Shown: positions 21,700 to 39,295 of the stretch, piece after piece
Position numbering within the stretch: position 1 is the first letter of the stretch
How the letters are laid out: each line of letters begins with the position of its first letter
From: a bacterium
Lineage (GTDB): Bacteria > Zhuqueibacterota > Zhuqueibacteria > Residuimicrobiales > Krinioviventaceae
Direction of reading: 5' to 3'
NCBI GenBank assembly: GCA_963693055.1
Contig: OY843751.1
Coordinates: forward strand, 3,616,001 to 3,680,000
DNA length: 64,000 nt
Translations under genes and position numbers: made by a program
The notes under the pieces: generated by a model
What the model saw: only the letters and a program-made list of their open reading frames with translations
Database searches by the model: none
Told to the model about the DNA's origin: nothing

Positions 21700-22623
21700 T
21701 TAGGTCATAATATTATAAACAATTTCCTTGATATCATTCAGGTTCTTATCCAATAAACCCAGATGAATGCTGTTATCCAGTGTTTCATCCTGAAAATGTT
21801 CATTACGGATAATTTCCCAGGCATAATCCATTTCAATATCAATCTTGTTTTCTTCGCTAATCACCAAACCCAGGTCATGGTTCTGGCAGTATACTCCCGC
21901 CAAATGCACTATTGCAACCAGAGTTCGTTCGTAGATAGCGGTTTCCGGACGATGATGTCTTGCAACCACATGAGCAATTTCGCCAAAGAAATTCCACTGT
22001 TCCAATAACCAGGGACCAAAATCCGTATGACTTATACCAAAAATCTTATTTTCAGCTTGTTCAAAATTACAGTTTTCCTGTTCTACAGTTTGTAATACTT
22101 TGACATAATCATCAGAAAAATTATGGATCAAAATAATTTCACCAATATCATGTAGTAATCCTGCAAGGTAGGCACGTTCAAAATCTTTGTATTTTATACT
22201 CTTTGCAAGCAGTTTACTTACAACCGCCGTAGCAAATGAAAACTGCCAAAAAGATTTAAGTATTTTTGAATTTTTTCCGCTTGAAAATGTATTCATTAAT
22301 GTCGTTGTCAATACAACATTTTTAACTTCTTTGATCCCCAGATAAACCAAAGCCTCACGCAAAGACTCGACCTTACGCCCTAAACCAAAATAGACAGAAT
22401 TGACAATCTTGACCATCTTTGCAGTTAATACCTGGTCCATCATGATCAAATCAATCAATTCATCAATAGAAAAATCCGGATTTTTGGCCTGCTCAAGGAT
22501 CTTGATTGCAAGTGGTGGCAATACCGGAAGATCATCTATTTTGTCCAAAAAAGCCAGCAACCGTTTGTCTTTGGTGCCTTGATTATTCTGTACTTCTGAC
22601 TTTTTCACATCCTCGGCTAACAC
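21700..22623 (-). CDS. HDOD-domain protein
   Basis: LPVLPP, DQVLTAKMVKIVNS.YFG, AYLAGLLHDIG, FGISH...G..LLEQWNF and HH. GTG start with AGGAG upstream. Confidence 0.9.
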   Translation of the reverse strand: MLAEDVKKSEVQNNQGTKDKRLLAFLDKIDDLPVLPPLAIKILEQAKNPDFSIDELIDLIMMDQVLTAKMVKIVNSVYFGLGRKVESLREALVYLGIKEVKNVVLTTTLMNTFSSGKNSKILKSFWQFSFATAVVSKLLAKSIKYKDFERAYLAGLLHDIGEIILIHNFSDDYVKVLQTVEQENCNFEQAENKIFGISHTDFGPWLLEQWNFFGEIAHVVARHHRPETAIYERTLVAIVHLAGVYCQNHDLGLVISEENKIDIEMDYAWEIIRNEHFQDETLDNSIHLGLLDKNLNDIKEIVYNIMT

Positions 22624-22646: not shown

Positions 22647-23924
22647 TCAATCATACCATGCAATTTTTCTTAACGCGAGCAACATTGGGAAATGCGGGGG
22701 TTTCATATCTTTTAATCTTGGGTCCCAATGATAATTTTTTAAATATCCTTTATGCGGGCTTCCCAATTGTCCTACTGCACCACGAGCATATTGTATCAAC
22801 CCACCATACAATCTCAAATATCCATAAGTTTGGGCAGAATAATTTTCCACATAAAAATTACGTTCATAGGTATATGTTGTAGGATTCATGCACATGATTG
22901 TCGCCTGAATTGTTCTGTCTGCAAGATAATGATTATCTGCAACTGCTACATCTTTGGTTGCAACAAGGCCAATCATATCTTGTGAAGTTGGGTTTGTTGC
23001 AGGATTGTCATTACAAATCAAATCATCTATCACACGAATCTTGCCCTCAGACGCTACAGTCACCTGGCCACTCACTGTACCTTCAACATTTACTATAGTG
23101 TTTATAGGATCACTGGAAAATCTTGTATATATCACTCCGTTTGTACCAGAAAGATTATAACTTGTATATTCAGCGGCAGTTGGTGGTGTTGATACATTTT
23201 TAGCACAAATCAAAGCCGTTGAATCGCTTTGAAAATCTATCCAGACATATTTGGCATTGAAATAAAGCCCACCCGTTACACCTGCATTCGCAACATCTGA
23301 AGGAATAGATGAGGGCATTTGCAACTCGGGTACTTTCCATTCTGAACCAGCATTAAAAACCGGATTTGTGGACGAATAATATTTTTGATAAGGTGAATAG
23401 GCACTATACACACGGTGACTGGTCACTTTACCCATAAAAACTGCCTGATTTCCAGTATAACCACTTATTCTGAAATAATCATTGGTATGTGTAGGACCAA
23501 ACAAGGTATCTCCACCGGCGAACCAGATATTACCTTCAGTATTGGTAAAATATGCAAACCTTGAAAATGAAGGCCGTGTTAACAATACTGCAACCGTATC
23601 ATACGCCCCCATATATTGACCAATGGCAGTTACACGAACCATAGTCGGTCCCAAATTGGGATCCTCGGTTTGTCGTTCATATTTATATGAATAACTTCCG
23701 TTCGCCCAACTTTCATAACTAACACCATCTGTCCTTTCAATATCCAGCATTAATTCATTTAGCGCAGCATTAGCTCCGCTGTTGGCTATATTACGCAGTA
23801 CAATTTCACTATAATTGTCAATATAGGTTGACATTCCCTGCCGCACAGCGCCCTGGGTTTGCATACGAACAAACATGACACTGATCATCAACCCCAACAC
23901 CAATATTATTGAATATTTTCCCAT
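22647..23924 (-). CDS. PilX/GspK-like large minor pilin, leaderless
   Basis: N-terminal hydrophobic helix MGKYSIILVLGLMISV followed by IANSGANAAL (PilX-like), and C-terminal GYLKNYHWDPRL...PPHFP. Sits in the pil locus. Confidence 0.65.
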   Translation of the reverse strand: MGKYSIILVLGLMISVMFVRMQTQGAVRQGMSTYIDNYSEIVLRNIANSGANAALNELMLDIERTDGVSYESWANGSYSYKYERQTEDPNLGPTMVRVTAIGQYMGAYDTVAVLLTRPSFSRFAYFTNTEGNIWFAGGDTLFGPTHTNDYFRISGYTGNQAVFMGKVTSHRVYSAYSPYQKYYSSTNPVFNAGSEWKVPELQMPSSIPSDVANAGVTGGLYFNAKYVWIDFQSDSTALICAKNVSTPPTAAEYTSYNLSGTNGVIYTRFSSDPINTIVNVEGTVSGQVTVASEGKIRVIDDLICNDNPATNPTSQDMIGLVATKDVAVADNHYLADRTIQATIMCMNPTTYTYERNFYVENYSAQTYGYLRLYGGLIQYARGAVGQLGSPHKGYLKNYHWDPRLKDMKPPHFPMLLALRKIAWYD

Positions 23925-23944
23925 GTCAAACCTCTACTAAAAGA

Positions 23945-24541
23945 TTATTCACCCAAAAGATTTTTGGGTGTTATACGGGTAACGAACATAAATTTAGAAT
24001 ATTCTCCTTTAAAAGGTTCCCGGCTCTCAATACGATATGCAACACGAATTGATCGAATTCTGGACAAGGAATCTGCAACAACAGGTGTAGACAATTCTGT
24101 TCCTTGTCTGTTATAATAACGAAGACGAAAACGTGTTAATCCCAGACAATAACCATCATGATTTGAATTATTGACTTTTCTCAACAATTTTTTATCATTC
24201 GGATTGGGGGAAGCAGTATCATCTCCAAACAAATAATATTCAACTTGAACAGAATCTGAAGTATGTACGCCCAGTACAGCACGTGGATTGGTATTATATG
24301 AAAATCGAATTCGGCTTGTATCTGCAAGGGATATTGCATTATCAGGATCAGACAAACAGTGCCCTATTTTTCTAAAATCATAACTTACAATATCATTTAA
24401 AACGCTCATATTATCCTGGGTCCGGATATCCTGCTGCAAAAATATTGAACTCGCTTTTACATTAGAATCCACCTGAATAATTATCAATATCAACATTCCG
24501 GCAATAATCAGAGATGTTATAATATCCATCATACTATTCAT
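23945..24541 (-). CDS. PilW/GspJ-like minor pilin, leaderless
   Basis: MNSMMDIITSLIIAGMLILIII helix, then DFRKIG (PilW-like D.R.AG), F.L.YY and C-terminal ITPKNL. Confidence 0.65.
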   Translation of the reverse strand: MNSMMDIITSLIIAGMLILIIIQVDSNVKASSIFLQQDIRTQDNMSVLNDIVSYDFRKIGHCLSDPDNAISLADTSRIRFSYNTNPRAVLGVHTSDSVQVEYYLFGDDTASPNPNDKKLLRKVNNSNHDGYCLGLTRFRLRYYNRQGTELSTPVVADSLSRIRSIRVAYRIESREPFKGEYSKFMFVTRITPKNLLGE

Positions 24542-24552
24542 AATTTATCCTC

Positions 24553-25056
24553 TTATTCGGTAAAGAAATAATGATACGCGTACAATTTTCTCAAAATGAC
24601 TTGTCCGTCCAAAGCTCCGGAAAACGCATCTGAATCGATCGTCACGGATATTTCTTTATAGTAGGATTGAGTAGATATCTGTCGGTAATCATTATCCGGA
24701 TCCACATAATGAACAGAAATATTTATAGTAAATGGGATCGAGTTTGACAAACTGTCTGTTACTGAAAATCCATTAAAATCATCTACATCATCAAAATTTC
24801 CATATGACTCACCACTGTCTGGCCCCAGATCTCCGGGTTCCGTATAGGATGCAATGGCCTGTGCCGAATTATCTTCGTCAAACCTTAGATTTTCAGCCTC
24901 TTCAATATAGAGCTGCGCTTGTCCTATTGCTTCCAATACCTGTTCACTGTGATATATAACTGTATGATCATAAACCATGTGCGAATTCAATGTCAAAGAA
25001 AACAGCGAGAGCAGCATTAGCGCACCAATTGTTAAAATTGTTTCTGATGTGCCCAT
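24553..25056 (-). CDS. PilV/MshD-like minor pilin, leaderless
   Basis: MGTSETILTIGALMLLSLF with Glu at residue 5, A...A...IEEA, and FDDVDDFNG (MshD-like). Confidence 0.65.
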   Translation of the reverse strand: MGTSETILTIGALMLLSLFSLTLNSHMVYDHTVIYHSEQVLEAIGQAQLYIEEAENLRFDEDNSAQAIASYTEPGDLGPDSGESYGNFDDVDDFNGFSVTDSLSNSIPFTINISVHYVDPDNDYRQISTQSYYKEISVTIDSDAFSGALDGQVILRKLYAYHYFFTE

Positions 25057-25070
25057 AATAATAACCTCAC

Positions 25071-27944
25071 TTACTCACCATACCCATCAAATGTCATATT
25101 AATATATACTGTGGTACTTGTTGTACCGTTTGGACTATCAAGAGCTACTGTTACTTCCGCAAGACCAGGATCATCAATTACAGGATCCATATTATTCAGC
25201 AAATTGATCTGAAAATATGTTGAACCACTGCCATATTTTTCAGCCTCAGCCATGAGTGATGTTGCGTTCAACTTGCCTTTAGAGGTCGATGCATTTAATT
25301 TCGAACCTCTTGCTACAGGGTTACCATTGATATCATAAACTTTGATATCTATAGTAGCAACTTGTCCCCAATTCAGCTCGTCTGTGTCTGAAACCACTTC
25401 AAATTTCAACAAGGGGCCGCTAAAGATAACCGCACCGGTAGTAAATACCGTAATTGAAGAATCGGAAGCGCCTGTCTCATGGTAATATTGATCACAACCG
25501 CGGGTTGTAGCCAAAACATATGCCACACCATCATTTTCATCATAGGTATTCATTGTGTTCAACACTTCTGAAAACTCAAAATCAGGTACAGTAATGGGAA
25601 GCATTATATTCCTGTCATTGGGATTCGGAATTCTATGCGGTGCCAGAACATACGGATCTGATGGATTAAGAACTGGACGTGGATTCGCGCTAATCAATGT
25701 AGCTGAACCAATTCCATAAGCATCTGTCATAACATCTGTTGTTATAATACCTGCTGTTGAAGTCAGATAAACCGTGGTTCCCTCCTCAACAGGGTTATTA
25801 TACCGGTCACCAACATAAACCGTTACATTATAATCTCTAACGTTGTTCCAGCCATCCTGGTTGATGTAATCAAACGCAAGGGTCATATGGGGCTCAACAT
25901 GATTTTTATCAGCCGGATCAACCCACATGTATGGAGGACCAGAACGGATAACCACATTGGTGGTTCTTGCGGATATATTATAATCATCATCAAGCACTTC
26001 AGCTTCAACGCGTACCGTTCCGGAATGGGTACCCGAGCGCAGGGTAACAGTTGCCTCACCATTGATCGTCTTGATGGGTGAAGAAACAAAGCCTGAAGGA
26101 TCGTTTGATGGTAATATCTGTTCACCACCACCGGGTCCACTTAAAATCCGGAATTGTACCATCACATCACTTGAAAGCGGAGTTCCGGTTTGAGATAATA
26201 ATGTTGCAGTCAAGGTAGTTTGTTCCAGATTACCGGTTTCTTTAACCCAAATAAAACTCGGTTCTGCATCAAGCAGGAACGAAGTTGCTTTTTCAGGTGC
26301 AAAAATAATTGGAATGGATTTCACCAGACCACCATAAACCACATTTACTTCTGCAATACCAGATTGGGTTTCAGAAACCAACTCAACACTTGCTGCACCC
26401 AGTGAATTGGTTGTCGCAATATTGGGAATTGATCCCAAACTTGAATTAAAATTGATCGTTGCGTTGGAAATGACCTCTTTAGAAGTCGTTTGTTTTAATT
26501 GAACAGTAATAACCGTTTTAGAGTTGCCATCTGCCTGAATTGAATCGGCACTTGCAGATACTTGCATACTGACACCCTTTAACTCCATTGGCAATTGATT
26601 TGTAACACTGCCAAAGGTTGCGGTAATAATATCACTTGCATCAACGGTATCGGCATCTGCTTCATAAGTTACATTCGCAATACCATACTCGTCGGTCACG
26701 GCTACACTGTCTACATACCCGTAATTTGAATAAAAACGAATTTTTGTATTGGTTATTGGATTTTGTTGATTATCCAATATTTTAGCGGTAATACCCACCT
26801 TGTCCAATCCATTTCGAATTACCGATTGATTTTCAGCTTTTAAATCAAAAAGACTTTCACCTGCAGATTCAATAAAGGAAACCTGAGCGGTATCTATTAA
26901 TCCATTGAATGTTGCAATAACCTGAACATTTTCATTTATTTCGCTTCCACTAACCAGCTCAGCAATAGCATCACCTTTGTTATTGGTGTATGCTTTGGCT
27001 GTAATAGAACCATCTGTCGTTGTGAATTCTACTTCTGCTCCAATAATGGGGTTATTTTTATGTGTAAGTAACCGGGCAGTCATATACAAAGAAGACCGTC
27101 CACCGGCAGATATTTGCGCTTCTTTGGGAAGCAATTCTAAACTGGGTAAAATATATGAAATAGGAAGTGCAATACTTTCAAACGCACCATACTCTACAAA
27201 CAATGTATCAACCATTTCTTTTGTCATAGAGAGCACATTAACAGTTGCAACACCTTCATTATCAGTCAGAACATATTGAGGTACAGTGTTTTCTAATGCA
27301 CGTAGATAAATATATGAACTGCTAACTGCTTTTTTACTTGTTGTCTCTTTAACCACAACCCTGAGTTCGGATGAATTGATACCATCTGCCGGAACCTCGG
27401 TGTGGCTCAAAGTTGCGTTAAACTGAACACCAATAAACTGGAAATTGATTTTTGAGGTTACAGTAACTTCACCATCTGCTGTTGTCTTTTTCAGACTTTT
27501 ACCCTCTGCATTTTTAACCGTAAGGCTGACAGTATAGGGTTTAACAACTTTCTTTGACAGTTCAGTACTGTCTAGCAAAGATGTTGTTACAGTTACTGCA
27601 ATATCTTGTTCACTGGCTACACTGGTTAAAACAGCATACGCTTCACCATAATAATTGGTGACTGCAGATCTTGTTATTGTACCATGTGTTGTACGAAAAT
27701 TAACCCGCACACCAGATGCAGAATAACCACTGGTATCATTTACGATTGCAACCAGTGTAACATTTGATACACCATCAGCAATCAACACGGGATCTTCAGT
27801 ATCCATGTTTACTTGTTCAATTGTATTGGGACCCGTAACTTTATCTTCATCTTGATCACATTGCACAAGCATAAAGCTAATCAGGAACCAGGCCGCTATA
27901 TATAAAAGTTTATGTAATTTCATCTCGAAAACCTGTACATTCAT
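25071..27944 (-). CDS. Invasin/intimin-type Ig (Big_1) repeat lipoprotein
   Basis: Lipobox LVQC (likely start 27923). Repeated ADG.S...V.F.TT.G......T...G.A...L.S units. Confidence 0.75.
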   Translation of the reverse strand: MNVQVFEMKLHKLLYIAAWFLISFMLVQCDQDEDKVTGPNTIEQVNMDTEDPVLIADGVSNVTLVAIVNDTSGYSASGVRVNFRTTHGTITRSAVTNYYGEAYAVLTSVASEQDIAVTVTTSLLDSTELSKKVVKPYTVSLTVKNAEGKSLKKTTADGEVTVTSKINFQFIGVQFNATLSHTEVPADGINSSELRVVVKETTSKKAVSSSYIYLRALENTVPQYVLTDNEGVATVNVLSMTKEMVDTLFVEYGAFESIALPISYILPSLELLPKEAQISAGGRSSLYMTARLLTHKNNPIIGAEVEFTTTDGSITAKAYTNNKGDAIAELVSGSEINENVQVIATFNGLIDTAQVSFIESAGESLFDLKAENQSVIRNGLDKVGITAKILDNQQNPITNTKIRFYSNYGYVDSVAVTDEYGIANVTYEADADTVDASDIITATFGSVTNQLPMELKGVSMQVSASADSIQADGNSKTVITVQLKQTTSKEVISNATINFNSSLGSIPNIATTNSLGAASVELVSETQSGIAEVNVVYGGLVKSIPIIFAPEKATSFLLDAEPSFIWVKETGNLEQTTLTATLLSQTGTPLSSDVMVQFRILSGPGGGEQILPSNDPSGFVSSPIKTINGEATVTLRSGTHSGTVRVEAEVLDDDYNISARTTNVVIRSGPPYMWVDPADKNHVEPHMTLAFDYINQDGWNNVRDYNVTVYVGDRYNNPVEEGTTVYLTSTAGIITTDVMTDAYGIGSATLISANPRPVLNPSDPYVLAPHRIPNPNDRNIMLPITVPDFEFSEVLNTMNTYDENDGVAYVLATTRGCDQYYHETGASDSSITVFTTGAVIFSGPLLKFEVVSDTDELNWGQVATIDIKVYDINGNPVARGSKLNASTSKGKLNATSLMAEAEKYGSGSTYFQINLLNNMDPVIDDPGLAEVTVALDSPNGTTSTTVYINMTFDGYGE

Positions 27945-27946
27945 TA

Positions 27947-29713
27947 TTAAACGTTTGAACTGAATTTTACCACAACCATGTCGCCTGGCCGTATTGCGCC
28001 TTGAATTCGGCGACCAATGGATCGTTCATATTTTGTTTCCCTGATCAACACATTCCCAACATTGAGTGGTTTATCACTACCATTTGACCGTATTACTGAA
28101 AACCGTTTACCATTCAGCTTGTCAGTATTAAAGTCTCCCTGCCATTTGATCAAAATTATATTATCATCGACCTCTACAATCTGTCCCAGAAAATAGTTCT
28201 TTTTTGCATCAGCAGTTTGAACAGAACTTTGTGAAGCAGATTTGGGAACTGATACTATTTTTTTCTGAACAGGTGCTCTTGATGTTTGTGGTCTCGCGGT
28301 TTGCGCACTTGCTGTTTGTGTTCTCGTTGATTGTGATCTCGCTATTTGTGTGCTAGCTGCTTGAGTCGTTGCACGCGGAGTTGTCTTTACCGGAGTTGTT
28401 CGTTTGTTATAAACGGGTTTGGTTTCAACAACCGATGCACTGCGGGGCTGCTGTACAATTCTGTTACTTTCGATCGCCTGGTGTTGAACCTGCTTTTGTA
28501 TAGGAGGCGCAGAGTAAACAGAACGAATTTGTTTTTCAGGACGTACGGGTTCAATATCACCACGCTGATAGGGCCTTACTTTTAATTCAGCATCATCATC
28601 CCAATAGTCCTGATTTACAGGCAAGTCCTTACGATCAAAAACACTCGGCAGAATAGTTGCCTTGATAATTATGATCAACTCTTTTTGACTTACTTCTTCA
28701 CGATTATAGCCAAAAATATAAGACAAACCGAAAAACCATCCCGGCAAGTCTTTAATGATAGGAACGCCTTTGCGTAAAGAATTTTTCTCAGTATTATATA
28801 AACCTGCAATAATGGTTTCTTCACCATCAAATAGTTGAATATATGAATCTGCTTCTGATTTTTTCACAATAGTACTAACCGCGTCAGGAGCGGCCTGACT
28901 ACGTTCAACATGTACTTTTAAAACAATTGCGTGACTATCATCTTTATCTTGAAGAAGATAGGGAGTAACTTCCATAATTGTACCGGTGCTGAAGAATCGA
29001 TCAATAACATTTCCTGCAAAGTCTGTGGTTTTAATTGAAAAATCTTCACCAACCTGAATTTTTCCTTCATTACCTTGTGTAACAACAACTTGTGGCTGCG
29101 CTAGTACTTTACCAATATTTCTACTATCAAAAATACTGAATAGTGCTCTTACATCAATATCATATGATTCTGATGAGGTAATTTCAAAATTCAAAAAACT
29201 ATCAGTAATAGATGAAGAACCCAGCTGGTCTCCGGAAACTTTGACAGAACCATTATAAAATGTGCTCCAGTCAATACCTATCTCAGAGATAGCCGTTCTG
29301 TCACCTTCAAAAAATATAGTCTCAATCTTTATTTCACGGCTGCCAAGCTTCACATTAATATCATCATCTCCGCTGCCTTTTGATGCAGAAGGTACAACAA
29401 TTTGCAGAAAATGATCCATCTCATCGTACCATAAACCACGTGAACTCAGAATGATCTGCAACGCTTTTTCCCATTGCATTCCATTGATATCCACTCCAAT
29501 TGGCCCCTGCTGTTTTGTGGGATCAAATATGGGCTTGTTTGTAAAAGTGATCGAGTATTCGCTCAGTATACTCATCGCGTCTTGAAATTCCAGCTGGCCG
29601 TTTATTGAACACATTTCCGCCGGTGGCACAAGTTCACGGGGCATACGTTCTCTGGTTAAACCGGGCAGGGTTAATAACGCAATGATTAAACAAATATTTC
29701 TAATTCTTTTCAT
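27947..29713 (-). CDS. pilQ: Secretin (PilQ/GspD family) with long C-terminal extension
   Basis: GIDW, LAQPQVVV..G.EGKIQVG, TG..MEVTP, DGEETIIAGL, KGVPIIKDLP, ELIIII.ATI. Confidence 0.85.
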   Translation of the reverse strand: MKRIRNICLIIALLTLPGLTRERMPRELVPPAEMCSINGQLEFQDAMSILSEYSITFTNKPIFDPTKQQGPIGVDINGMQWEKALQIILSSRGLWYDEMDHFLQIVVPSASKGSGDDDINVKLGSREIKIETIFFEGDRTAISEIGIDWSTFYNGSVKVSGDQLGSSSITDSFLNFEITSSESYDIDVRALFSIFDSRNIGKVLAQPQVVVTQGNEGKIQVGEDFSIKTTDFAGNVIDRFFSTGTIMEVTPYLLQDKDDSHAIVLKVHVERSQAAPDAVSTIVKKSEADSYIQLFDGEETIIAGLYNTEKNSLRKGVPIIKDLPGWFFGLSYIFGYNREEVSQKELIIIIKATILPSVFDRKDLPVNQDYWDDDAELKVRPYQRGDIEPVRPEKQIRSVYSAPPIQKQVQHQAIESNRIVQQPRSASVVETKPVYNKRTTPVKTTPRATTQAASTQIARSQSTRTQTASAQTARPQTSRAPVQKKIVSVPKSASQSSVQTADAKKNYFLGQIVEVDDNIILIKWQGDFNTDKLNGKRFSVIRSNGSDKPLNVGNVLIRETKYERSIGRRIQGAIRPGDMVVVKFSSNV

Positions 29714-29723
29714 GGTGTACCAC

Positions 29724-30737
29724 TTACTTTTTGGTTAATGATAATTCAAGGGAATTGTAACCACCCGCCGCATTCATATAGAACCCAACTCTGCCAGATT
29801 GTACATTAATATTCCCGACAGTACCACCCAAAACCCGATCCCCTTTTCTCAACTTTTTAATACGTCCGTGCTGATCCCTGATCAACACACTATTTGGGGT
29901 TATTGCTAAGACTTCTGTAGCTGGTGAAATTTCCGGTAATCCTAACGGATTTGATACAGCTGTTACATTACTGTTACCTTGTCCTCTTTCTGCTTGAGGG
30001 TTAGAATTTTCTAAAGTTACCAGTTCGTGAGAATATTCTGTTGATCTAACATTAACAGTCGACTGTTCTGCTTTTAATATATTGTCAATTGCTTCAGATA
30101 CTGAATTATCAACAAGACTTGCCAGCATTTCCGGTTTGCCAACATTCCGTCTCAAGCTATCCATTTCAAGACCTTTTTCTTTTCTAAAGCCCCAAACGCT
30201 TAATGCAAATGTCAATTCACCGCGGTTAGCTGCCCATTCTTCCTGCTTTTTCTGTTCTATTGGTATTCTATCCATACTGACCGATTGAATATTATAGAAA
30301 ATAGGTCCGTTTTCCAGGAACCATATCAATCGATAAAAATCTTCAAATTCTGACTCTCCTGACAACAAATAAGTATTTCGTTCAAAATCTTTAAATTTTT
30401 CTTTTACAACCAACTCTTGGTTTAATACAAGTTTTGAACTTGTATGGTCAATTTCTCGCAACATGTAATCAAAAGTCTCACCAGGAGATTCATTTCCGGC
30501 CAAAGCACCCAGCTTACCCAGGCTAAGATCACGCAAGTAATCATACTCTTGTGTAAGTTCATGACGGGTGATCTGCATCATTTTCAAATCATTCACGCGA
30601 TTTGTTTTTTGTTTAATCTCGGCTTCAAGACTGGTATGTTTTTTGGCCTGATAACCGTAAACATAATACAAACCGCCTATGAGAATAATCAGCCAGAAAA
30701 CAGCTATAAATATCGTATTTCGAATTACATATGGCAT
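29724..30737 (-). CDS. PilO-like protein with C-terminal PilP-like beta domain
   Basis: N-terminal TM helix and coiled coil, PilO-like GESEFEDFYRLIWFLEN, C-terminal SVLIRDQHGRIKKLRKGDRVLGGTVGNI. Confidence 0.6.
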   Translation of the reverse strand: MPYVIRNTIFIAVFWLIILIGGLYYVYGYQAKKHTSLEAEIKQKTNRVNDLKMMQITRHELTQEYDYLRDLSLGKLGALAGNESPGETFDYMLREIDHTSSKLVLNQELVVKEKFKDFERNTYLLSGESEFEDFYRLIWFLENGPIFYNIQSVSMDRIPIEQKKQEEWAANRGELTFALSVWGFRKEKGLEMDSLRRNVGKPEMLASLVDNSVSEAIDNILKAEQSTVNVRSTEYSHELVTLENSNPQAERGQGNSNVTAVSNPLGLPEISPATEVLAITPNSVLIRDQHGRIKKLRKGDRVLGGTVGNINVQSGRVGFYMNAAGGYNSLELSLTKK

Positions 30738-30738
30738 A

Positions 30739-32331
30739 TCAATAACTATCTTTTTTTAGTTCAACTGTCTCTTCCAAAGATTTGGGTTGCACAAAACAAT
30801 CAATGGTAACATTAATAAAAGATCGGTCTTCTTCAGCTGTATAAACCGCAGAAACCAAACTAAAATCTATATATCGTTCAAGTTTAACTACCTGCTCTCT
30901 GTTTTCCATTTTCAAATCAGCAACAAGATGAGAACGGTCTCTAACTTCCATTTTATATAGACTAAACGGACCAATTTCATTATAAGCCTGAGATAAAGAT
31001 TCAAGAGTAGATGCCCAACGAATCGTCTCTTTGGTCATAGAATCTATCAATGCAGTATTGTTTTTCATTGCTGTAATTTCTGCACGCAAGCTATCAACTT
31101 CGTGCGCAACAGATTTTAATCCATTTAGCTCATTATTGAGAAAAACTATATTAGACTTTGCCTTATTAATTTCAATATTATTACTGATACTTTTGCTGGT
31201 TACAAAAAAAGCACTGATAAACAGAAATACCAGCAGCAATAAACCCGGCCAACCAATTTTATAGACAGAAGTTTTATCACGAATTCTTGTTGGCAAAAAA
31301 TTCTGATTATATACAGTAGAATCGCGTTCATCCAGAATTTTGAGTGCCATAGCAATAGCGATACCATAAGATTCAGCCTGACTTGCAAACTGGTCCTGGT
31401 TCATTCCATAGCTGGCACGTGATGCATCAAAACGAATAATTTCCAATTCCGGTAAACGGTTTTTAAAATAAGCTTCCGCGTCCAGTCTTGATATTTCACC
31501 GGTAAGAACAATATTATTTAAAGAAGTTATATTACCTGAATCCAGCTCGAACAATATCTTAGAAAAAGCCGTATCACAAACAGTTTCAGAATCTGCACCT
31601 TCATGAATTGTTGGCAAAACAGTTTCAATTTCTTCACCCTTCATGAAAAATATTTTTGTAAATCCTTCAGCAAATACAATAACTGCGGTATGGTCTTCAT
31701 TTTCAAAATCATAATTTTTAATCAGTTCATGTGCCAGGGTAAATTCTATGGTATCTACCATTGATAAACGAACAGGGTCTGTACGCAAAATGGAAGTAGC
31801 TTCATCAAACAATGCGGCAAGCACCAGTGGATCATCATGAACTACGGAAAGATAAGAACCGTCTTGACGCTTCAAGTACCCAACATTTTCAAATTTTGCT
31901 TCGTTAACTGTACTTTCATAAAAATCAGACCAGATCACCTTTTTGATTTTTTTACGGTTACTTTCCTGAATATCACTGATATTTTTATATAATGTAAATG
32001 AATTGGAAAGATTAAATCCAATACGTGTTCCTTTTGGAATCAAATGATTAATAATATCTATTGTAGTATCAATATTGGTTTTACCATCATGCTTAATGCC
32101 ATTATCATCAAAATCTGCGGGTTTATCTTCCAGATCAATACCAAAGCCCTGGTCATCAAGTGCAAGCTTTTTATCTTCTTTGGGGCTTTCCATAGCATCA
32201 CGTTCTTCAAGTTGCTCACTCAAATGATATGTTTCAAGCGCTTCAATCTCTACCTCTTTACCGTTATTAACCAGTAACGCAGCTTTTAATTGATAATCAT
32301 CAATGAATATTCCTAATGCTCTTTTTTTCAT
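30739..32331 (-). CDS. PilM-PilN-like fusion protein
   Basis: ALGIFID actin-like start, IVLTGE, YGIAIAMAL (end of PilM-like part), then NFLP (PilN INLLP-like), a TM helix and a coiled coil. Confidence 0.65.
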   Translation of the reverse strand: MKKRALGIFIDDYQLKAALLVNNGKEVEIEALETYHLSEQLEERDAMESPKEDKKLALDDQGFGIDLEDKPADFDDNGIKHDGKTNIDTTIDIINHLIPKGTRIGFNLSNSFTLYKNISDIQESNRKKIKKVIWSDFYESTVNEAKFENVGYLKRQDGSYLSVVHDDPLVLAALFDEATSILRTDPVRLSMVDTIEFTLAHELIKNYDFENEDHTAVIVFAEGFTKIFFMKGEEIETVLPTIHEGADSETVCDTAFSKILFELDSGNITSLNNIVLTGEISRLDAEAYFKNRLPELEIIRFDASRASYGMNQDQFASQAESYGIAIAMALKILDERDSTVYNQNFLPTRIRDKTSVYKIGWPGLLLLVFLFISAFFVTSKSISNNIEINKAKSNIVFLNNELNGLKSVAHEVDSLRAEITAMKNNTALIDSMTKETIRWASTLESLSQAYNEIGPFSLYKMEVRDRSHLVADLKMENREQVVKLERYIDFSLVSAVYTAEEDRSFINVTIDCFVQPKSLEETVELKKDSY

Positions 32332-32335
32332 AATA

Positions 32336-33541
32336 TTAACTTAATAATTCCTGTGCACGTTTTTTATTGTTTGCAAAATTGATTGCATTTTGTTCTGTAA
32401 TTTTGCCTTGCTTAACCAGACGGACCAGGTCTTGTTCAAGAGTATTCATACCCAGTTTTCCGCCTTCAGCAATCATCTGATAAATTTCAGTAACATTTTT
32501 ATTACGAATAGCCGCACGTACTGAACTGGTAACCAGTAAAACTTCTTTTGCAAGTACCAGTTTCTGATCAATACCCGGAATCAACTTTTGCGAAATAACA
32601 ACTCTTAACTGATCTGCCAAACGCACGCGAACACGCTCTTGTTCAAATGTGGGACATTCAGCCACAATACGGTCAATGGTTTCTACTGCTGAACCGGTAT
32701 GCAAGGTTGAAAATACTTTATGGCCCGTATCTGATATTTCAAGACAGGTTACAATAGTTTCAGGATCACGCATTTCGCCTACTACAATAATATCAGGATC
32801 CTGTCGTAATGCCTGAACCGCACCATCCTTGAACGACAATACATCTCGCCCTACTTCTCGGTGACGGATGATACATTTTTTAGATTGATGAATATATTCA
32901 ATAGGATCTCCAACAATAACAATATGAGCATTGACCGTTTGATTATTGGCATCTACTATACTGTCCATTGTTGTACTTTTACCAGAACCGGTAATACCTG
33001 TTAATAAAACAATACCCTGCTTTTCATGAGCTAGTGATAAAGCTCTGGTAATGTTGGGATGAAAACCCAAATTTTTATAAGGATAAACATTGGTATTAAT
33101 AGCACGCATATTCAACGCAAGGTGCCCCAAATCTACATACATACTGGCACGCCAGCGCATCATACTTTGTTGATCAGATACAGCATAAGAAAAATCTAAT
33201 ACTCTGTCACTTATCAATGCTTCACGTTGTTTAGTAGAAAGCAGACTCTGGCACATGATATCGGTTTGATCTGTTGACCAATGCCCCAGTTCCTGACGTG
33301 GTACTTTACGCCCCTGTAATCTGAACCAGATATAATTCTGTGCGGTTACTCCCCCCATTTCAATATCAGAAGCATTCAATTTGCGCATAACCAACAAAAA
33401 CTCTTTATATTTATTCTGAAGAAAATAGGTTTCCTGAGGAGACAATTTATCCATTGCATCACTAAGATAACGCTGACGGTCTATACCCTCAGCGTGTGGG
33501 GGCAGTTGTTTTTTTACTTTATTAAAAATTTCTGGTAACAT
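32336..33541 (-). CDS. pilT: Type IV pilus retraction ATPase PilT/PilU family
   Basis: GITGSGKST, DPIEY, HREVG.D, ALRQDPDIIVVGEMRD, TGH.VFSTLHT, ISQKL, GMNTLEQDL. Confidence 0.92.
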   Translation of the reverse strand: MLPEIFNKVKKQLPPHAEGIDRQRYLSDAMDKLSPQETYFLQNKYKEFLLVMRKLNASDIEMGGVTAQNYIWFRLQGRKVPRQELGHWSTDQTDIMCQSLLSTKQREALISDRVLDFSYAVSDQQSMMRWRASMYVDLGHLALNMRAINTNVYPYKNLGFHPNITRALSLAHEKQGIVLLTGITGSGKSTTMDSIVDANNQTVNAHIVIVGDPIEYIHQSKKCIIRHREVGRDVLSFKDGAVQALRQDPDIIVVGEMRDPETIVTCLEISDTGHKVFSTLHTGSAVETIDRIVAECPTFEQERVRVRLADQLRVVISQKLIPGIDQKLVLAKEVLLVTSSVRAAIRNKNVTEIYQMIAEGGKLGMNTLEQDLVRLVKQGKITEQNAINFANNKKRAQELLS

Positions 33542-33547
33542 GATAAA

Positions 33548-34507
33548 TTAAACCTTTTCAACCATACAATTTTCGTCAAGATACTTTTTCTGATATTCAA
33601 TAATTTTATAAGGATCTATCAAATCGTGCTCACCATCACGATAGTGTTCTTCAATTTTTTCAATGATTGCGCGTATACGCCCCACACTGTTTTGGATGCT
33701 ATCTACGCGTTCAATATATGAGCTGCCTTCATCTCGCATCATTAACTCTGCGTTAACTGCCAGAATAGCAAGTGGGTTATTTAACTCATGCTGCAGGGTA
33801 CGCAAAATTTTATCAATAAAGATTCTTTTTTCAAGTTTCAATTTCTTGGAATATGTGGAAACCATTTCATTATTTTTCCGAATATACTCTGCATTTAATT
33901 TCATCAATTCAACATTCTGCATAATCAAAGTATTTGAAAGGAATGATGAAATAAAATAAACCAGAAATAATAGACAGGTATAAGATAAAATGGATTGGAT
34001 GTTCATACGCAAAAACATCAGAAAAGCTGGTAAAAGCTCAAAACTGGGCATTACTCTATTGTATTGGGTTAGGAACAAAACAGTTATCAAACCCAGCAGG
34101 CTGATATTGCTTGCCCAAAAACCTACACTTTTTCCCATTGTAATGCTGGAGGTTAAAACAGGTATTAGATACAGCCAGATCAATGGACTTTCTGTACCAC
34201 CTGTCATATAAATAACCATTGAAAAGATGCAGACATCCAGCAGATTGTGCAACAAGATGAAAAACCGATTATTCTTTAAAGAATCCAGCCAAAAACTGTA
34301 TGCCATGTTTAAAATCATAATGCCTATCAAAGTATATACAAAAGTATACTTGGGTAGAGTCATCTGTTTCAGGGCCAGTTGTATAATACCAATTGATAAA
34401 AAGCTAATGGTAGAAAACCAGCGTACATAATTCCACCACTTTAGGGTATTATGAATACTTTGATTTTCATCAAACTGATTGGGATTATTCTTAATGGATT
34501 TTTTCAC
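33548..34507 (-). CDS. PilS-like membrane sensor with HisKA domain but no ATPase domain
   Basis: About 6 TM helices with TGGTESP. H-box QHELNNPL, with the ORF ending about 80 aa later and no N/G1/F/G2 boxes. Confidence 0.65.
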   Translation of the reverse strand: MKKSIKNNPNQFDENQSIHNTLKWWNYVRWFSTISFLSIGIIQLALKQMTLPKYTFVYTLIGIMILNMAYSFWLDSLKNNRFFILLHNLLDVCIFSMVIYMTGGTESPLIWLYLIPVLTSSITMGKSVGFWASNISLLGLITVLFLTQYNRVMPSFELLPAFLMFLRMNIQSILSYTCLLFLVYFISSFLSNTLIMQNVELMKLNAEYIRKNNEMVSTYSKKLKLEKRIFIDKILRTLQHELNNPLAILAVNAELMMRDEGSSYIERVDSIQNSVGRIRAIIEKIEEHYRDGEHDLIDPYKIIEYQKKYLDENCMVEKV

Positions 34508-34535
34508 CGTGTTACCCTTTAAATAGTTAAACCAA

Positions 34536-35534
34536 CTAGTACATTACCCCGTCGACAGGTGTTTTAAGCTGTCTAACTTCTTCATTCATCCTGGCCACTC
34601 TTTCACAAGTGAGCATAAACTTTTTCGACATACATAAAATCACGTTCGCGGCATAACGCATAGCCAGATTCTTGTTATTCTGAAAATACTTTGCAAGATC
34701 AGATTTATTAATTACTATTAAATCAAAGCTTTCTTCAGATTTTAAAAGCAGCATAAAATTTGTTTTTCCTGATATAAATACAGAAGATTCTCCAATACTT
34801 TCTCCTGCTTTAAAATAACCTATCAAACTATTTCTGTACCAGCACGAAAGACTACCACTTTTTACAATGACCATCTCTTTGGTCGCATCAAGGATATAAT
34901 TTTCCCTAACCTGAACCGTTTTTCCCGTTCCCAGATCCAAAATACCTCTCACATGCTGGTCAGGCATATTGGAAAAAACAAAGGGGGTAAACGCAACAAT
35001 TTGTTGTTCCTGCACAACAGGTCTGGGAGCAGATTCCGGTCTGGCATGACCGTTTGTACCATTCGTACCATTGCTTCCATTCGTCCCATTATGTGGAACA
35101 GGCCTGCTTTGCACGCTTGATCCATTTTGTGGTTTACTTTCATCTTCCGGTTGTATATTAACAATAGCTGATTCCTTGTTAAAAAACTTGTTAATGTTGG
35201 TAACAAGATTTTTGGCTAACCCGGGTTTGGTAACAAATTCATTAGCACCGGCTTTGATTGCCTTTTGAGAGAAATTCTGACCACTGAACCCGGTAAATGC
35301 AATGATATGCGTTTGGGGTGATCGGGTCCTTAATTTCGAAATAATCTCAAGACCATTCATCTGACCCGGCAAAACCAGGTCTACCAGGGCCAAATCAAAG
35401 TTATTTGCGCCAGATTTCATCACTGCTTCGTCACCATCGGCGGCCGTAACCACTTCATAGCCCTCTAATCTCAACAATTCAGCCGAAGTTTCCCGCAAAT
35501 CCCGTTCATCATCAACTATTAATATCTTATGCAT
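34536..35534 (-). CDS. Response regulator (REC) with C-terminal cNMP-binding-like domain
   Basis: ILIVDDE, D in LVDLVLPG, FTG and TKP. NG-repeat linker. VKSGSL...GESIGE cNMP-fold motif. Confidence 0.75.
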   Translation of the reverse strand: MHKILIVDDERDLRETSAELLRLEGYEVVTAADGDEAVMKSGANNFDLALVDLVLPGQMNGLEIISKLRTRSPQTHIIAFTGFSGQNFSQKAIKAGANEFVTKPGLAKNLVTNINKFFNKESAIVNIQPEDESKPQNGSSVQSRPVPHNGTNGSNGTNGTNGHARPESAPRPVVQEQQIVAFTPFVFSNMPDQHVRGILDLGTGKTVQVRENYILDATKEMVIVKSGSLSCWYRNSLIGYFKAGESIGESSVFISGKTNFMLLLKSEESFDLIVINKSDLAKYFQNNKNLAMRYAANVILCMSKKFMLTCERVARMNEEVRQLKTPVDGVMY

Positions 35535-35552
35535 TCATAACCTCGTTTCACA

Positions 35553-37340
35553 TTATTCCATAGTTGCCGCAACAACTTCATCCATACAAGCCCTACCCTG
35601 CAACACGCGTGTCCGTGCAGCCGCCCTCAGTGAAACCATACCATATTTTATTGCACTCGCTCGAATTTTGTCATCATCCAGATCACCGGATGCTTCCAAA
35701 ATTATTCTTCGTATATCAGGTGTAAAAGGTAATACTTCATGAATTGCAACTCGACCGGAATACCCCTTACGACAACTATCACATCCCACCGGCTCATAAA
35801 TGGTTGCATTTTGTAACTCTTCATCCTTAAACCCAATTGAATTGGCAAACGCCATATCAATATTTTCAACGGGTTTCTTGCACTTGTCACATAAAGTACG
35901 CATCAAACGCTGTGCCACAACCAAATTGATAGCATAGGCGATGAGAAAAGGTTCTATACCCATTTTATATAAACGGGAAATAACGCTAACAGCATCATTG
36001 GTATGCAATGTAGAAAAAGTAAGGTGACCGGTGTTGGCAAGTTTAATACCAATCTCGGCTGTTTTTTGGTCACGAATTTCACCCACCATAACAATGTCAG
36101 GGTCGTGACGAAGAATAGCACGTATAGCTTTATCAAAATCCATCTTGTGGCTGATCTTTAACTGACGTGCTCCCTTAATATTATATTCCACAGGATCTTC
36201 AACAGTCAGTACATTAACTTCAGGAGTCATTACCTGATGCAATGCCGCAACAAGTGTGGTACTTTTACCACTACCGGTAGGACCCGTTAAAATAACCATT
36301 CCCTGGGGTTTCTTGATAGCTTTAATAAACTCTGCTCTTGCAAAACCATCAAAACCCAGTTTACCCAGATCGGTTATAACTTTACGGTCATCAAGCACAC
36401 GAATAACAACACTTTCATACTTGCGGGTAAACGCGCTTGATACAATGGGTACAATAGAAACACGAAAACGCAGCAGGTAATGGTCAATTTCTCGTTGAAT
36501 AAAACCATCTTGCGCGGTATCCCATTCAAACCGGTCAACATTACGGGTTCTGTCTTTAACCACTGCCAGAAAAGCTTCCGGTTTAACTCCGTCCTGGCGG
36601 TGCCACAATTGCAGCTTGCCGTCAATACGGAAATGGATTTCTGTAATGTTTCCTTCTTTGGGGATAATATGAATATCACTGGCACCTTTATGTACCGCTT
36701 CGATCAAACATCCCTCAAACAAGTTTACCAACAAACTTTTGTTAATAGCTGCCGTTAACTCGTCTTCATCCAGCCCTTTATCGTCCTCTTCCTCATCCAT
36801 CGATATAGACATCTCTTCAGTAACCTCTTTGAGGTTTTCAAGGAATTGGTTTTCATTGGGCATGGCTTTCTTGAGGATCTCTTCAACCTCTTCCAGCTTG
36901 CCATAAGCAAGTTCAAAGCGCTTAAAACCGGCTTGTCTGAGTAGTTGATCAATTGTACGGTCGGTTGGATCAGGAGTAATAAAGATGGTCACTTCATTAT
37001 TTTTTTCACTATATCCAAAGGGCAAGATCTTGCGGTTTACAAATGCATCCTGAACATTCTGTGGCAAGTTTTCATACATGCTTCGAATAAATTTTAACCA
37101 GCCTTCAGAAACAGATGCAGCATCTATTTTAATTTCACGAAAAGCATAAACCCGGCAAAACGCCTGGTATACCTTGTGACGATCATAACCTAATTCATTG
37201 ATTAATACATTTTCTAGACTCTGCTTTTTATCAGAGTTTTTTACAATATCGTTGACTTTGGCAAGGTCTTCCTGATTACAGAGACCTTCTCTGATCAACA
37301 TTTCAACAACTGTATTTGGAATTTGTGTATTTGCTATCAT
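35553..37340 (-). CDS. pilB: Type IV pilus extension ATPase PilB/GspE
   Basis: ASDIHI, RIDG, QDG, GPTGSGKST, EDPVEY, LRHDPDIVMVGEIRD, TGHLTFSTLHTND, zinc motif CDKC...CDSC. Confidence 0.95.
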   Translation of the reverse strand: MIANTQIPNTVVEMLIREGLCNQEDLAKVNDIVKNSDKKQSLENVLINELGYDRHKVYQAFCRVYAFREIKIDAASVSEGWLKFIRSMYENLPQNVQDAFVNRKILPFGYSEKNNEVTIFITPDPTDRTIDQLLRQAGFKRFELAYGKLEEVEEILKKAMPNENQFLENLKEVTEEMSISMDEEEDDKGLDEDELTAAINKSLLVNLFEGCLIEAVHKGASDIHIIPKEGNITEIHFRIDGKLQLWHRQDGVKPEAFLAVVKDRTRNVDRFEWDTAQDGFIQREIDHYLLRFRVSIVPIVSSAFTRKYESVVIRVLDDRKVITDLGKLGFDGFARAEFIKAIKKPQGMVILTGPTGSGKSTTLVAALHQVMTPEVNVLTVEDPVEYNIKGARQLKISHKMDFDKAIRAILRHDPDIVMVGEIRDQKTAEIGIKLANTGHLTFSTLHTNDAVSVISRLYKMGIEPFLIAYAINLVVAQRLMRTLCDKCKKPVENIDMAFANSIGFKDEELQNATIYEPVGCDSCRKGYSGRVAIHEVLPFTPDIRRIILEASGDLDDDKIRASAIKYGMVSLRAAARTRVLQGRACMDEVVAATME

Positions 37341-37342
37341 TT

Positions 37343-38689
37343 TTACATTCCCATTCCTGGTATTTTGGGTGAGAACACTGCAGTTTCAGAAGAAACTACG
37401 GTCAACAATGTCATCACAATCATGATGATCATTGAAACAAATACCTGGATCCAGTCCACAATGGCCTGCATCTTGTATTTGGATTCTTTTTCATAATAAC
37501 GAGCTATCTGCAAACTCACTTTTTTCAAAGTACCCGATTCAGCACCAGTATTAAAACGAGTGAGCGCATTATCAGTAAATACTTCTGCTGCTTTTAATGA
37601 TTCAACAAATCCTTTACCTTCTCTTACCATCATAGGTATTGTAATTTCTTTGATCTGTTTTTCCATATATTTATTTCTGCAAGCTTCAGCAGCAGTTCGA
37701 ATAACTTCAATATTTTCACCAGATCCACTGTACATGGAATTGAATACACGGCAAAAAATTTCAATCGAAGTTTTATGCATGATGGGTCCAAGTATTGGAG
37801 CTTTTATTGATATTTTGCCAACAACAACTTGACCCTTCTTGGTCACTGCCAGACGTAATAAAACGATAGGAGGAACAACCATTGCAAGTATAATCCACAC
37901 TATATTGGCTGTTAAGAAATGACTCATTTTCAAACTAAAATCAGTCATTGGGGGAAGCTCTGCACCAAAACTGGCAAACATTTCAGCAGTTTCGGGAAAA
38001 ATGTAACCGATATAAAATATAACAGCACCCAGCAACACCAGCATTGTAATTGATGGCATTAACAAAGCGCTTTTGATACTTTTTTGAAAATCATGAACGC
38101 GTTCTAAAAAGATAGCAGTATTTTCATAAACTTCTGCCATATTACCACTCTTGGAAGCAACACCCAACATCTTTGCCGGGAACTTGCCCAAAAAGGCTTC
38201 CTGTTTTCCAAAAACTTCTTCACCATCTTTACCATCTTTTAAATCGCTCAAGATCTCTTTAATAATCTTTTTCATGGACTTGTTATTGATGTCAGTTTCC
38301 AAAAGGGTCAAAATCTCATCAAAAGGAAGTTTCTCTCTCAACAAGTCTGCTGATAGACGAATAAAAGTAATAATATCGCCCTGTGGGGGTTTCATTCGAA
38401 CATCAATAAGACTTTTTTCAACATGGACGTTATCAAAGCCCATGCGTCTGAGTGCGAGTTCAACTTCTTCTTTTGAATAAGCCTGCTGTTCACCTCGAAT
38501 TGGAGAACCGCCCTGCCGGCTTACTTTATACAAATATGTTGCTTTCTTTTGTATAGAGTTGAGCGTAAAACCCTTCTGACGGGAGATAAGCGCAATCCTC
38601 TGTTTCGCTTCAGATTTGTTTTTGGCTTCAATAAACCCCGAAACACGCTTTTGATTGGGGGTCATTCCTGTATATCTAAATTCAGCCAT
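37343..38689 (-). CDS. pilC: Type IV pilus platform protein PilC (T2SS F family)
   Basis: MAEFRYTG..GFIEA, two T2SSF repeats (SGNMAEV, GAESGTL) with TM helices. Confidence 0.9.
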   Translation of the reverse strand: MAEFRYTGMTPNQKRVSGFIEAKNKSEAKQRIALISRQKGFTLNSIQKKATYLYKVSRQGGSPIRGEQQAYSKEEVELALRRMGFDNVHVEKSLIDVRMKPPQGDIITFIRLSADLLREKLPFDEILTLLETDINNKSMKKIIKEILSDLKDGKDGEEVFGKQEAFLGKFPAKMLGVASKSGNMAEVYENTAIFLERVHDFQKSIKSALLMPSITMLVLLGAVIFYIGYIFPETAEMFASFGAELPPMTDFSLKMSHFLTANIVWIILAMVVPPIVLLRLAVTKKGQVVVGKISIKAPILGPIMHKTSIEIFCRVFNSMYSGSGENIEVIRTAAEACRNKYMEKQIKEITIPMMVREGKGFVESLKAAEVFTDNALTRFNTGAESGTLKKVSLQIARYYEKESKYKMQAIVDWIQVFVSMIIMIVMTLLTVVSSETAVFSPKIPGMGM

Positions 38690-38713
38690 GGTTCTCTATT
38701 ATCTCCTTTTACT

Positions 38714-38747
38714 AAAAAAGGGCCCAGTGTGTTGCCGGGCCCTTTTT
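38714..38747 (-). terminator. Intrinsic terminator/attenuator between the major pilin and pilC
   Basis: AAAAAGGGCCC-N11-GGGCCCTTTTT with T tracts on both strands. Confidence 0.8.
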
Positions 38748-38866
38748 GATTCGAACATGATACTATAGTAATGATAGAGCTTTATTACTCTTTTATGATG
38801 TTAATCCAATTTGCCCAACTATAATTATCAATACATTCGTTAAATATCATTAGTTATTTACGATTC

Positions 38867-39295
38867 TTAACTGCCTGAAGAAACACGGTCAATAGAAGTA
38901 ATAGAAATGCTGTTAGCTTGAACTTCCATTACAACCTGAGCCACATTGCCGTCTTTGTCCTGGTAGGTTCCAACACCCTGCAAAGAAACTGCAGTTGCGG
39001 TTCCAGCGGTAGAAATAGTATAAGCGCCATTTTCAGTAGACCATGAAGTAGCTGAGCTACCTACTGGTGCCATGTCTTGCATTGCAATACCAACAAATGA
39101 ATTGCCGCCGCCACCCATACTGGTGGGTTTTACAAAATATTGTTGTGCTTTTGCAGCAAGGTTTGTCAAGTCATTAATGACTGCTTCCTGATTTGAAGAT
39201 GCAGCAGATGCACCAAACATTTGAATACCAACTACTACTGCAATACCTACAATAATTACAGAAAGAACGATGAGTAAAAGTTGCTGTTGACCCAT
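38867..39295 (-). CDS. Putative major type IV pilin, non-canonical and leaderless (MGQQQLLLIV...)
   Basis: 142 aa with an N-terminal hydrophobic alpha1 helix and amphipathic DL..LA..AQQYF. It has its own SD (AAGGAG) and terminator, and is the first gene of the pil locus. Confidence 0.75.
   Translation of the reverse strand: MGQQQLLLIVLSVIIVGIAVVVGIQMFGASAASSNQEAVINDLTNLAAKAQQYFVKPTSMGGGGNSFVGIAMQDMAPVGSSATSWSTENGAYTISTAGTATAVSLQGVGTYQDKDGNVAQVVMEVQANSISITSIDRVSSGS

Follow-up and report, generated by a model that had tools for sequence, protein, structure and literature searches.

Can a type IV pilus be built from subunits that are made without a leader peptide, and in cells that lack the enzyme that would remove it? 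This question is raised by a pilus locus in a 64,000-nucleotide stretch of bacterial DNA (contig OY843751.1 of assembly GCA_963693055.1, phylum Zhuqueibacterota, positions 3,616,001 to 3,680,000), here called the window. In the available passages of PMC10191384 and PMC4471445, the defining feature of type IV pilins is an invariant class III signal peptide, while the prepilin peptidase is a universal core part of the machinery. The leader holds the prepilin in the membrane in the orientation for cleavage, and Glu5 pairs with the N-terminal amine of the next subunit in the filament core. The same portion of PMC4471445 gives leaders of 6 to 26 residues and names only Nanoarchaeota as being without a detectable peptidase. 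The locus studied here encodes a type IVa-like machine with leaderless pilins, which likely builds a retractable filament with no need of a prepilin peptidase (estimated probability, about 0.75).

The four pilin open reading frames (ORFs) of the locus (Table 1) lie where the initial annotation placed them and begin as it read them. Each ATG follows a Shine-Dalgarno-like GGAG or GAGG, and none of the four frames has an earlier in-frame start. In-frame stops occur at codon -6 (major pilin), -7 (PilV-like), -2 (PilW-like) and -4 (PilX-like). With stops only 2 to 7 codons upstream, no longer leader can have been overlooked, as the annotation had argued; no leader is encoded. Its prediction that the N_methyl model PF07963 would miss these proteins was correct as well (0/4 matches at E<=1).

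The same start recurs among homologues. Since 119 of the 120 best major-pilin homologues begin exactly with MGQQQLL, the leaderless start is not a chance feature of one genome. At 87 related loci, 137 of 140 major-pilin ORFs were used (three were dropped for want of a start; four ORFs were dropped overall). The median distance to the upstream stop is 4 codons, and 134 of these majors are without an earlier in-frame start. A G-F-x-x-x-E class III motif is found in 0/137 majors, 0/36 PilV-like, 0/34 PilW-like and 0/31 PilX-like proteins (0/238 in total). By their upstream stops, by PF07963 and by their homologues, the window pilins thus lack the class III signal peptide of type IV filaments. In 125 of 134 majors, none of the first 27 residues is charged. 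An ordinary Sec signal peptide, cut by signal peptidase I near Ala31 to release a soluble head, would fit the A-S-A at residues 29 to 31 of the window protein and the soluble head-domain repeats seen in other proteins. However, among 134 majors residue 29 is Asp 48 times, Glu 8 times and Ala just 33 times, and the hydrophobic segment is nearly invariant, unlike that of signal peptides, which leaves this explanation a negligible probability.

Two of the subunits, the major and the PilW-like protein, model as type IV pilins, with a long N-terminal helix and a beta-meander head, and so bear out the fold that the initial annotation proposed to check with AlphaFold and Foldseek. The PilW-like model has 12 Foldseek matches at E<=1e-3, each of them to TTHA1219 or an Xcp pseudopilin.

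The Glu5 typical of a type IVa major pilin is not found; in an ungapped comparison the canonical position 5 is Leu8. Counted from Met1, residue 5 of the 137 majors is Gln in 136 cases and Glu in 1, and the 36 PilV-like proteins have Gln there in 20 cases and Glu in 12, in agreement with the suggestion that Gln5 replaces Glu5. Among the best 150 representatives of the major-pilin family, 135 fit M-[GA]-x-x-[QE] (Gly in 132, Ala in 3), all 135 with Gln5 and with positions 3 and 4 varying. The other 15 comprise fragments, one protein with a wrongly called start, four whose starts diverge, and proteins in which the head recurs in fusions or repeats. When profiles were compared to 45 canonical mature pilins of relatives, the major family aligned at an offset of +3, the PilV-like family at +3 in its best matches and the PilW-like family at +1. 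The +3 offset of the major pilin was also obtained from alignment with Geobacter PilA and from head-domain superpositions (28 to 25, 30 to 27). In the PilW-like protein, the +1 offset puts Asp6 at the Glu5 position and Met1 at -1. For the major and PilV-like pilins there are two possibilities: Met-Gly-Gln may be a remnant that is not cut off, or the stretch from Met1 to Gln5 may retain canonical spacing in a helix extended by one turn. The second possibility is favoured, though not settled, because of the residues that these two families keep at position 5.

Methionine aminopeptidase normally cleaves off an initial Met that is followed by a small residue such as Gly. As this enzyme is present (in 4/5 genomes tested), the mature major pilin most likely begins at Gly2. 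The earlier idea that Met1 is the mature +1 residue is therefore only partly right, given a major-pilin helix three residues longer than the canonical one and the probable exposure of Gly2.

No A24 (prepilin peptidase) gene lies in the window, as first noted. The expected co-absence of pilin and PilD fails in the source genome but holds in its sister species and in most other carriers. The source genome has two PilD genes elsewhere (C1:2187736 and C1:1529298), each in a separate type II secretion system (T2SS)-like cassette that also encodes G-F-x-x-x-E pilins, an ATPase and a secretin of its own, so that this genome alone cannot show PilD independence. The sister species (G070; 98% complete, 3 contigs) carries the locus at 92% identity over 18.9 kb. 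It has no PF01478 (A24) match at E<=10, no N_methyl pilins and no DNA match to genes of either PilD cassette, and its only two type IV filament ATPases are PilB and PilT of the leaderless locus.

Three lineage samples were surveyed for A24 genes over cut-off. Among 133 genomes of the phylum itself, the leaderless pilin occurs in 65, A24 in 95 and N_methyl pilins in 76. A24 is lacking in 26 of the 65 carriers, 24 of which also lack N_methyl pilins; 23 of the 26 are near-complete (>=90% complete, <=5% contamination; completeness figures refer to this sample only). The class of the Ignavibacterium record (201 genomes) has the pilin in 107 genomes, 92 of them without A24, and the class of the Balneolaceae record (121 genomes) has it in 94, 79 without A24. 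The total is 197 A24-negative genomes of 266 pilin-positive ones. Because most carrier genomes have no detectable prepilin peptidase, the leaderless filament is likely built without PilD.

More divergent enzymes were also looked for. With the source-genome PilD as query, no match in 29 negatives fell below E 0.02. A profile built from 18 lineage-matched peptidases recovered 6/6 positive controls and detected no peptidase domain in any of 54 chosen negatives; PF01478 detected archaeal enzymes in controls. The methylase domain PF06750 was over cut-off in 0/39 negatives, and PilD-type methylation is unlikely in A24-negative genomes. Type IV filament ATPases are present in 38 of 39 chosen negatives, with exactly two in 32, and machinery genes were observed around the pilin in 10 negatives (L089-L098; some stretches partial, one with frameshifts). 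Judged from gene content, the system is real and widespread, and its independence from PilD is well supported at the genomic level.

Two observations weigh against assembly free of a peptidase. The first is that A24 genes are commoner in pilin carriers than in the remaining genomes of the Ignavibacterium class (15/107 vs 1/94) and the Balneolaceae class (15/94 vs 0/27). This enrichment and the two PilD genes of the source genome would fit cleavage after Gly2 by a PilD encoded elsewhere, in the way that MSH systems use a peptidase supplied in trans (documented in the available part of PMC6668835). However, the sister species is without both cassettes, and canonical pilins accompany the A24 genes: 70 of 76 N_methyl-positive genomes of the phylum have A24, and in a set of 20 A24 loci, one from each of 20 of the 31 positive genomes, canonical class III G-F-x-x-x-E pilins are present in 18 and an MGQQQ pilin in none. 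The remaining two are a 1.7-kb contig and a locus with only an ATPase alongside. Given the 197 carriers without A24, PilD cleavage after Gly2, the outcome that the initial annotation had named as refuting its proposal, is ruled out as a general route, and borrowing in trans is very improbable.

The second observation is the strict Gly or Ala at residue 2 of the major pilin, which sustains the possibility of a minimal leader. Met-Gly or Met-Gly-Gln would be trimmed by a non-A24 peptidase to expose Gln3 or Gln4, whose cyclisation to pyroglutamate may remove the charge. An invariant Gly near the start of the PilX-like family and the ungapped register, which places canonical +1 at Gln4 (3sok range 4..139 to 1..142), are in line with this. 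However, Gly/Ala2 would likewise be expected if the subunits pack tightly at the filament axis, and the same register makes Gly2 residue -2, not -1. Residues 3 and 4 vary while residue 5 is constant, and the PilV-like (Gly2 in only 20/36) and PilW-like families have no fixed Gly2. No recurrent protease-like ORF was found among the unassigned ORFs of the 87 loci (10 kb from the pilin or ~20 kb), and PF06550 and PF04258 (SPP, A22B) matched in 0/5 genomes each. A minimal leader is thus unlikely, and production of leaderless subunits without any prepilin peptidase remains the preferred reading.

The T2SS-like cassette that carries PilD (C1:2178000-2193500 and 1519600-1535900; L162-L181) is patchily distributed and combines a secretin, L/M-like proteins, G/I/J/K pilins, PilD and an ATPase. 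It often adjoins a 1,400-2,400-aa ORF of RHS-like size, neither of the two source-genome copies was found in the sister species, and one copy is lower in GC (0.315 vs 0.394). It may be a mobile module through which large proteins are secreted. Near one PilD cassette lies a ~1.9-kb repeated element, likely an insertion sequence (C1:2174011-2175918 and at least 6 other sites). Short A24 peptidases (~150-200 aa frame), probably Tad-type, occur in genomes that lack an N_methyl pilin (G064-G066, G078, G079 and G084-G095).

The locus is a full type IVa-like machine with PilB, PilT, PilC, a PilMN fusion, PilO and a secretin. The initial list of PilB, PilT, PilC, secretin and M/N/O/P-like proteins is thereby upheld, except that its 530-aa 'PilM' is a PilM-PilN fusion and that no separate PilP was identified at the locus; PilY1 and FimU were not identified there either. 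PilB, PilC, PilT and the secretin were recognized with Pfam and NCBIfam models, PilT alone passing an NCBIfam cut-off. PilN and PilO were recognized by profile comparison (Table 1), and the PilM part of the fusion was assigned from Atlas neighbours with PilM_2/PilN features only. Both the extension ATPase and the platform protein of the type IV filament superfamily are present. Since the PilB model outscores the GspE model on the window PilB and PilT is present, the locus does not classify as type II secretion. In a tree, the window PilT groups with canonical PilT and the window PilB with PilBs of other leaderless systems; the PilBs of 38 leaderless and 11 canonical systems fall on separate sides of one branch (Shimodaira-Hasegawa-like approximate likelihood ratio support, 89; quick tree, limited outgroups).

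These genes might instead make no long surface pilus, with the subunits forming a short periplasmic pseudopilus for secretion or uptake or staying in the membrane. Pili are unreported for the carrier lineages in the literature searched, the I. album genome paper (PMC3362086) does not mention them, and loss of Glu5 blocks homopolymers in model systems (PMC4471445, available part). Nevertheless, a true PilT is present and conserved, the best profile matches are PilM/N/O rather than GspL/M, and tandem major-pilin paralogues occur in many loci. A pseudopilus is therefore quite unlikely. A retractable surface filament, whose likely role is adhesion or twitching, is the better account.

The type IVa pili of Thermus thermophilus (PilA4), Pseudomonas aeruginosa, Myxococcus xanthus and Geobacter (PilA) share with this system PilB, PilT, PilC, PilM/N/O and secretin, a major and V/W/X-like minor pilins, and the lollipop pilin fold. 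In contrast to them, the window system has no class III leader, no Glu5 in its major pilin and no N-terminal Phe; its helix is about three residues longer, most of its carriers lack PilD, PilM and PilN are fused, and PilY1, FimU and a separate PilP were not identified. In some lineages an immunoglobulin-like (Ig)-repeat lipoprotein adjoins its secretin.

Assembly could proceed as follows. The uncharged 22-residue hydrophobic segment would act as a signal-anchor, and the pilin would be inserted N-in through the signal recognition particle and Sec. The N-terminus would be finished by housekeeping deformylase and methionine aminopeptidase, which in the major pilin would probably leave Gly2. With no charged leader, nothing would retain the subunit in the membrane, and it would be ready for assembly. 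A PilV/W/X-like complex would prime the tip, PilB and PilC would extend the filament, and PilT would retract it through the secretin. In the core, Gln5 would substitute for Glu5 on a helix lengthened by about one turn, with hydrogen bonds instead of the salt bridge from Glu5 to the N-terminus. In this system the leader, the peptidase and Glu5 have gone together; we infer, as the simplest reading, signal-anchor insertion, completion by housekeeping enzymes and direct polymerisation. The systems of KSB1, Ignavibacteria, Kryptonia, Calditrichota and the Balneolaceae type would then probably form a type IV pilus subtype of single origin, which dropped the leader, the peptidase and the Glu5 salt bridge and builds a retractable filament from ribosome-ready subunits around a core that carries no charge, is lined with glutamine and is one helical turn longer.

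The full-text literature searched, with most subscription journals outside its coverage, gave no description of type IV pili that are leaderless or independent of a peptidase. The closed genome of Melioribacter roseus was reported to contain pilT, pilQ, pilB and pilC, with pilA and pilD not found and the set read as incomplete (PMC3534657, available part). By that description the same partial gene set is present, and no leaderless pilin was recognised in that part of the paper. In two Melioribacteraceae metagenome-assembled genome loci (L084, L087), MGQQQ pilins adjoin pilC. Annotation misses leaderless pilins and calls such loci incomplete because these proteins have no Pfam or NCBIfam match over cut-off. 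A 'Pili IV cluster' is named for Caldithrix abyssi in the accessible text of PMC5317091. MSH (MSHA) pili likewise have a clustered locus without a peptidase gene, but a peptidase is always present elsewhere in the genome (PMC6668835, excerpted text), whereas most leaderless-system genomes have none and their pilins have no cleavage site. Archaeal Tad clusters include some without and some with a peptidase gene (available part of PMC9563170). Filament subunits without Glu5 also exist among archaeal pilins and GspK/PilK-type tip pilins (available parts of PMC4471445 and PMC10191384); however, these still carry leaders and need PibD/FlaK or PilD. If the proposed reading is true, prepilin processing is a gate that can be dispensed with, and the mechanics of type IV filament assembly do not require it. 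A natural system without leader or peptidase makes testable why pilins have leaders, how topology is set, and what Glu5 and N-methylation do in membrane extraction.

The family is large. Among 4,444 candidates, 4,327 were homologues of the major pilin at E<=1e-3, and an unfiltered hidden Markov model search returned 2,169 representatives at 50% identity, extending to lineages with cultured members. The nearest named relatives of the window locus are KSB1; leaderless loci also come from Ignavibacteria, Kryptoniota, Calditrichaeota, Balneolaceae and Zixiibacteriota. The order major-pilC-pilB-pilT-MN-O-Q is conserved; the position of the V/W/X trio varies. Six Ignavibacteria-like loci (L030, L034, L045, L077, L078, L083) have another PilB-family ATPase immediately upstream of the major pilin. 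The source genome and its sister species also have an orphan second leaderless pilin (C1:6503737-6504129; L103:9735-10130, minus strand; MGQSQLL, 51% identical) unlinked to machinery genes. Five proteins of 210-580 aa (P0121, P0137, P0138, P0220, P0236) hold 2-5 tandem copies of the pilin head domain, and some head-repeat proteins have signal-peptide-like or lipoprotein-like starts. In P0211, P0238 and P0249, a zinc-ribbon and additional transmembrane (TM) segments precede the pilin helix and head, which makes them membrane-tethered pilin-like proteins.

In the window, the system forms a minus-strand run of 14 genes from the major pilin to the HDOD gene (Table 1). A 177-bp gap separates the major pilin from the next gene, and the remaining genes are 1-28 bp apart.

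Table 1. Genes of the leaderless pilus locus, in order of transcription (window positions; cNMP, cyclic nucleoside monophosphate; pLDDT, predicted local distance difference test).
Position	Strand	Feature	Basis
38867..39295	-	Major pilin, 142 aa, leaderless, MGQQQLLL start	
37343..38689	-	PilC platform protein	PF00482 E 1.8e-27, over cut-off; PilC/GspF models below cut-off
35553..37340	-	PilB extension ATPase	PF00437 E 1e-100; TIGR02538 best match, E 1e-124, below its cut-off; two CxxC motifs
34536..35534	-	Response regulator, receiver and weak cNMP-binding domain	PF00072
33548..34507	-	PilS-like 6TM and HisKA protein	PF25323 and PF00512 over cut-off
32336..33541	-	PilT retraction ATPase	TIGR01420 323.7 bits vs 319.1 cut-off; AIRN motif
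30739..32331	-	PilM-PilN fusion, 530 aa	Profile vs PilN of Myxococcus model 3jc8, E 1.6e-6, positions 368-490
29724..30737	-	PilO-like protein, 337 aa, C-terminal extension	Profile vs PilO of 3jc8, E 7e-4
27947..29713	-	Secretin, PilQ-like	PF00263 E 1.5e-24, over cut-off
25071..27944	-	Predicted lipoprotein, about six invasin-type Ig repeats	PF02369, PF09134
24553..25056	-	PilV/GspI-like minor pilin, leaderless, Glu5	Family profile matches canonical I/V-like pilins, E 5e-5 (45-sequence set)
23945..24541	-	PilW/GspJ-like minor pilin, leaderless, Asp6 at Glu5 position	AlphaFold2 pLDDT 89.7; Foldseek
22647..23924	-	PilX/GspK-like large minor pilin, leaderless, residue 5 not acidic	Position, size, conserved linkage with V-/W-like genes
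21700..22623	-	HDOD protein, 23 bp 3' of last pilin	PF08668

The sole Pfam match of the PilX-like protein is a sub-threshold DUF4900. A lipobox-like Cys is present in 13/13 homologues of the Ig-repeat lipoprotein compared, and this protein may serve as an anchor or adhesin. The HDOD gene is syntenic in 3 close relatives. The response regulator is kept in only some relatives and the PilS-like gene in close relatives only; as a pair between pilB and pilT (window 33548-35534), a 6TM-HisKA protein in which no ATPase domain was detected and a receiver/cNMP-like regulator are confined to close relatives. The N-terminal ~100 residues of PilC (window 37343-38689) resemble two tandem copies of a small domain.

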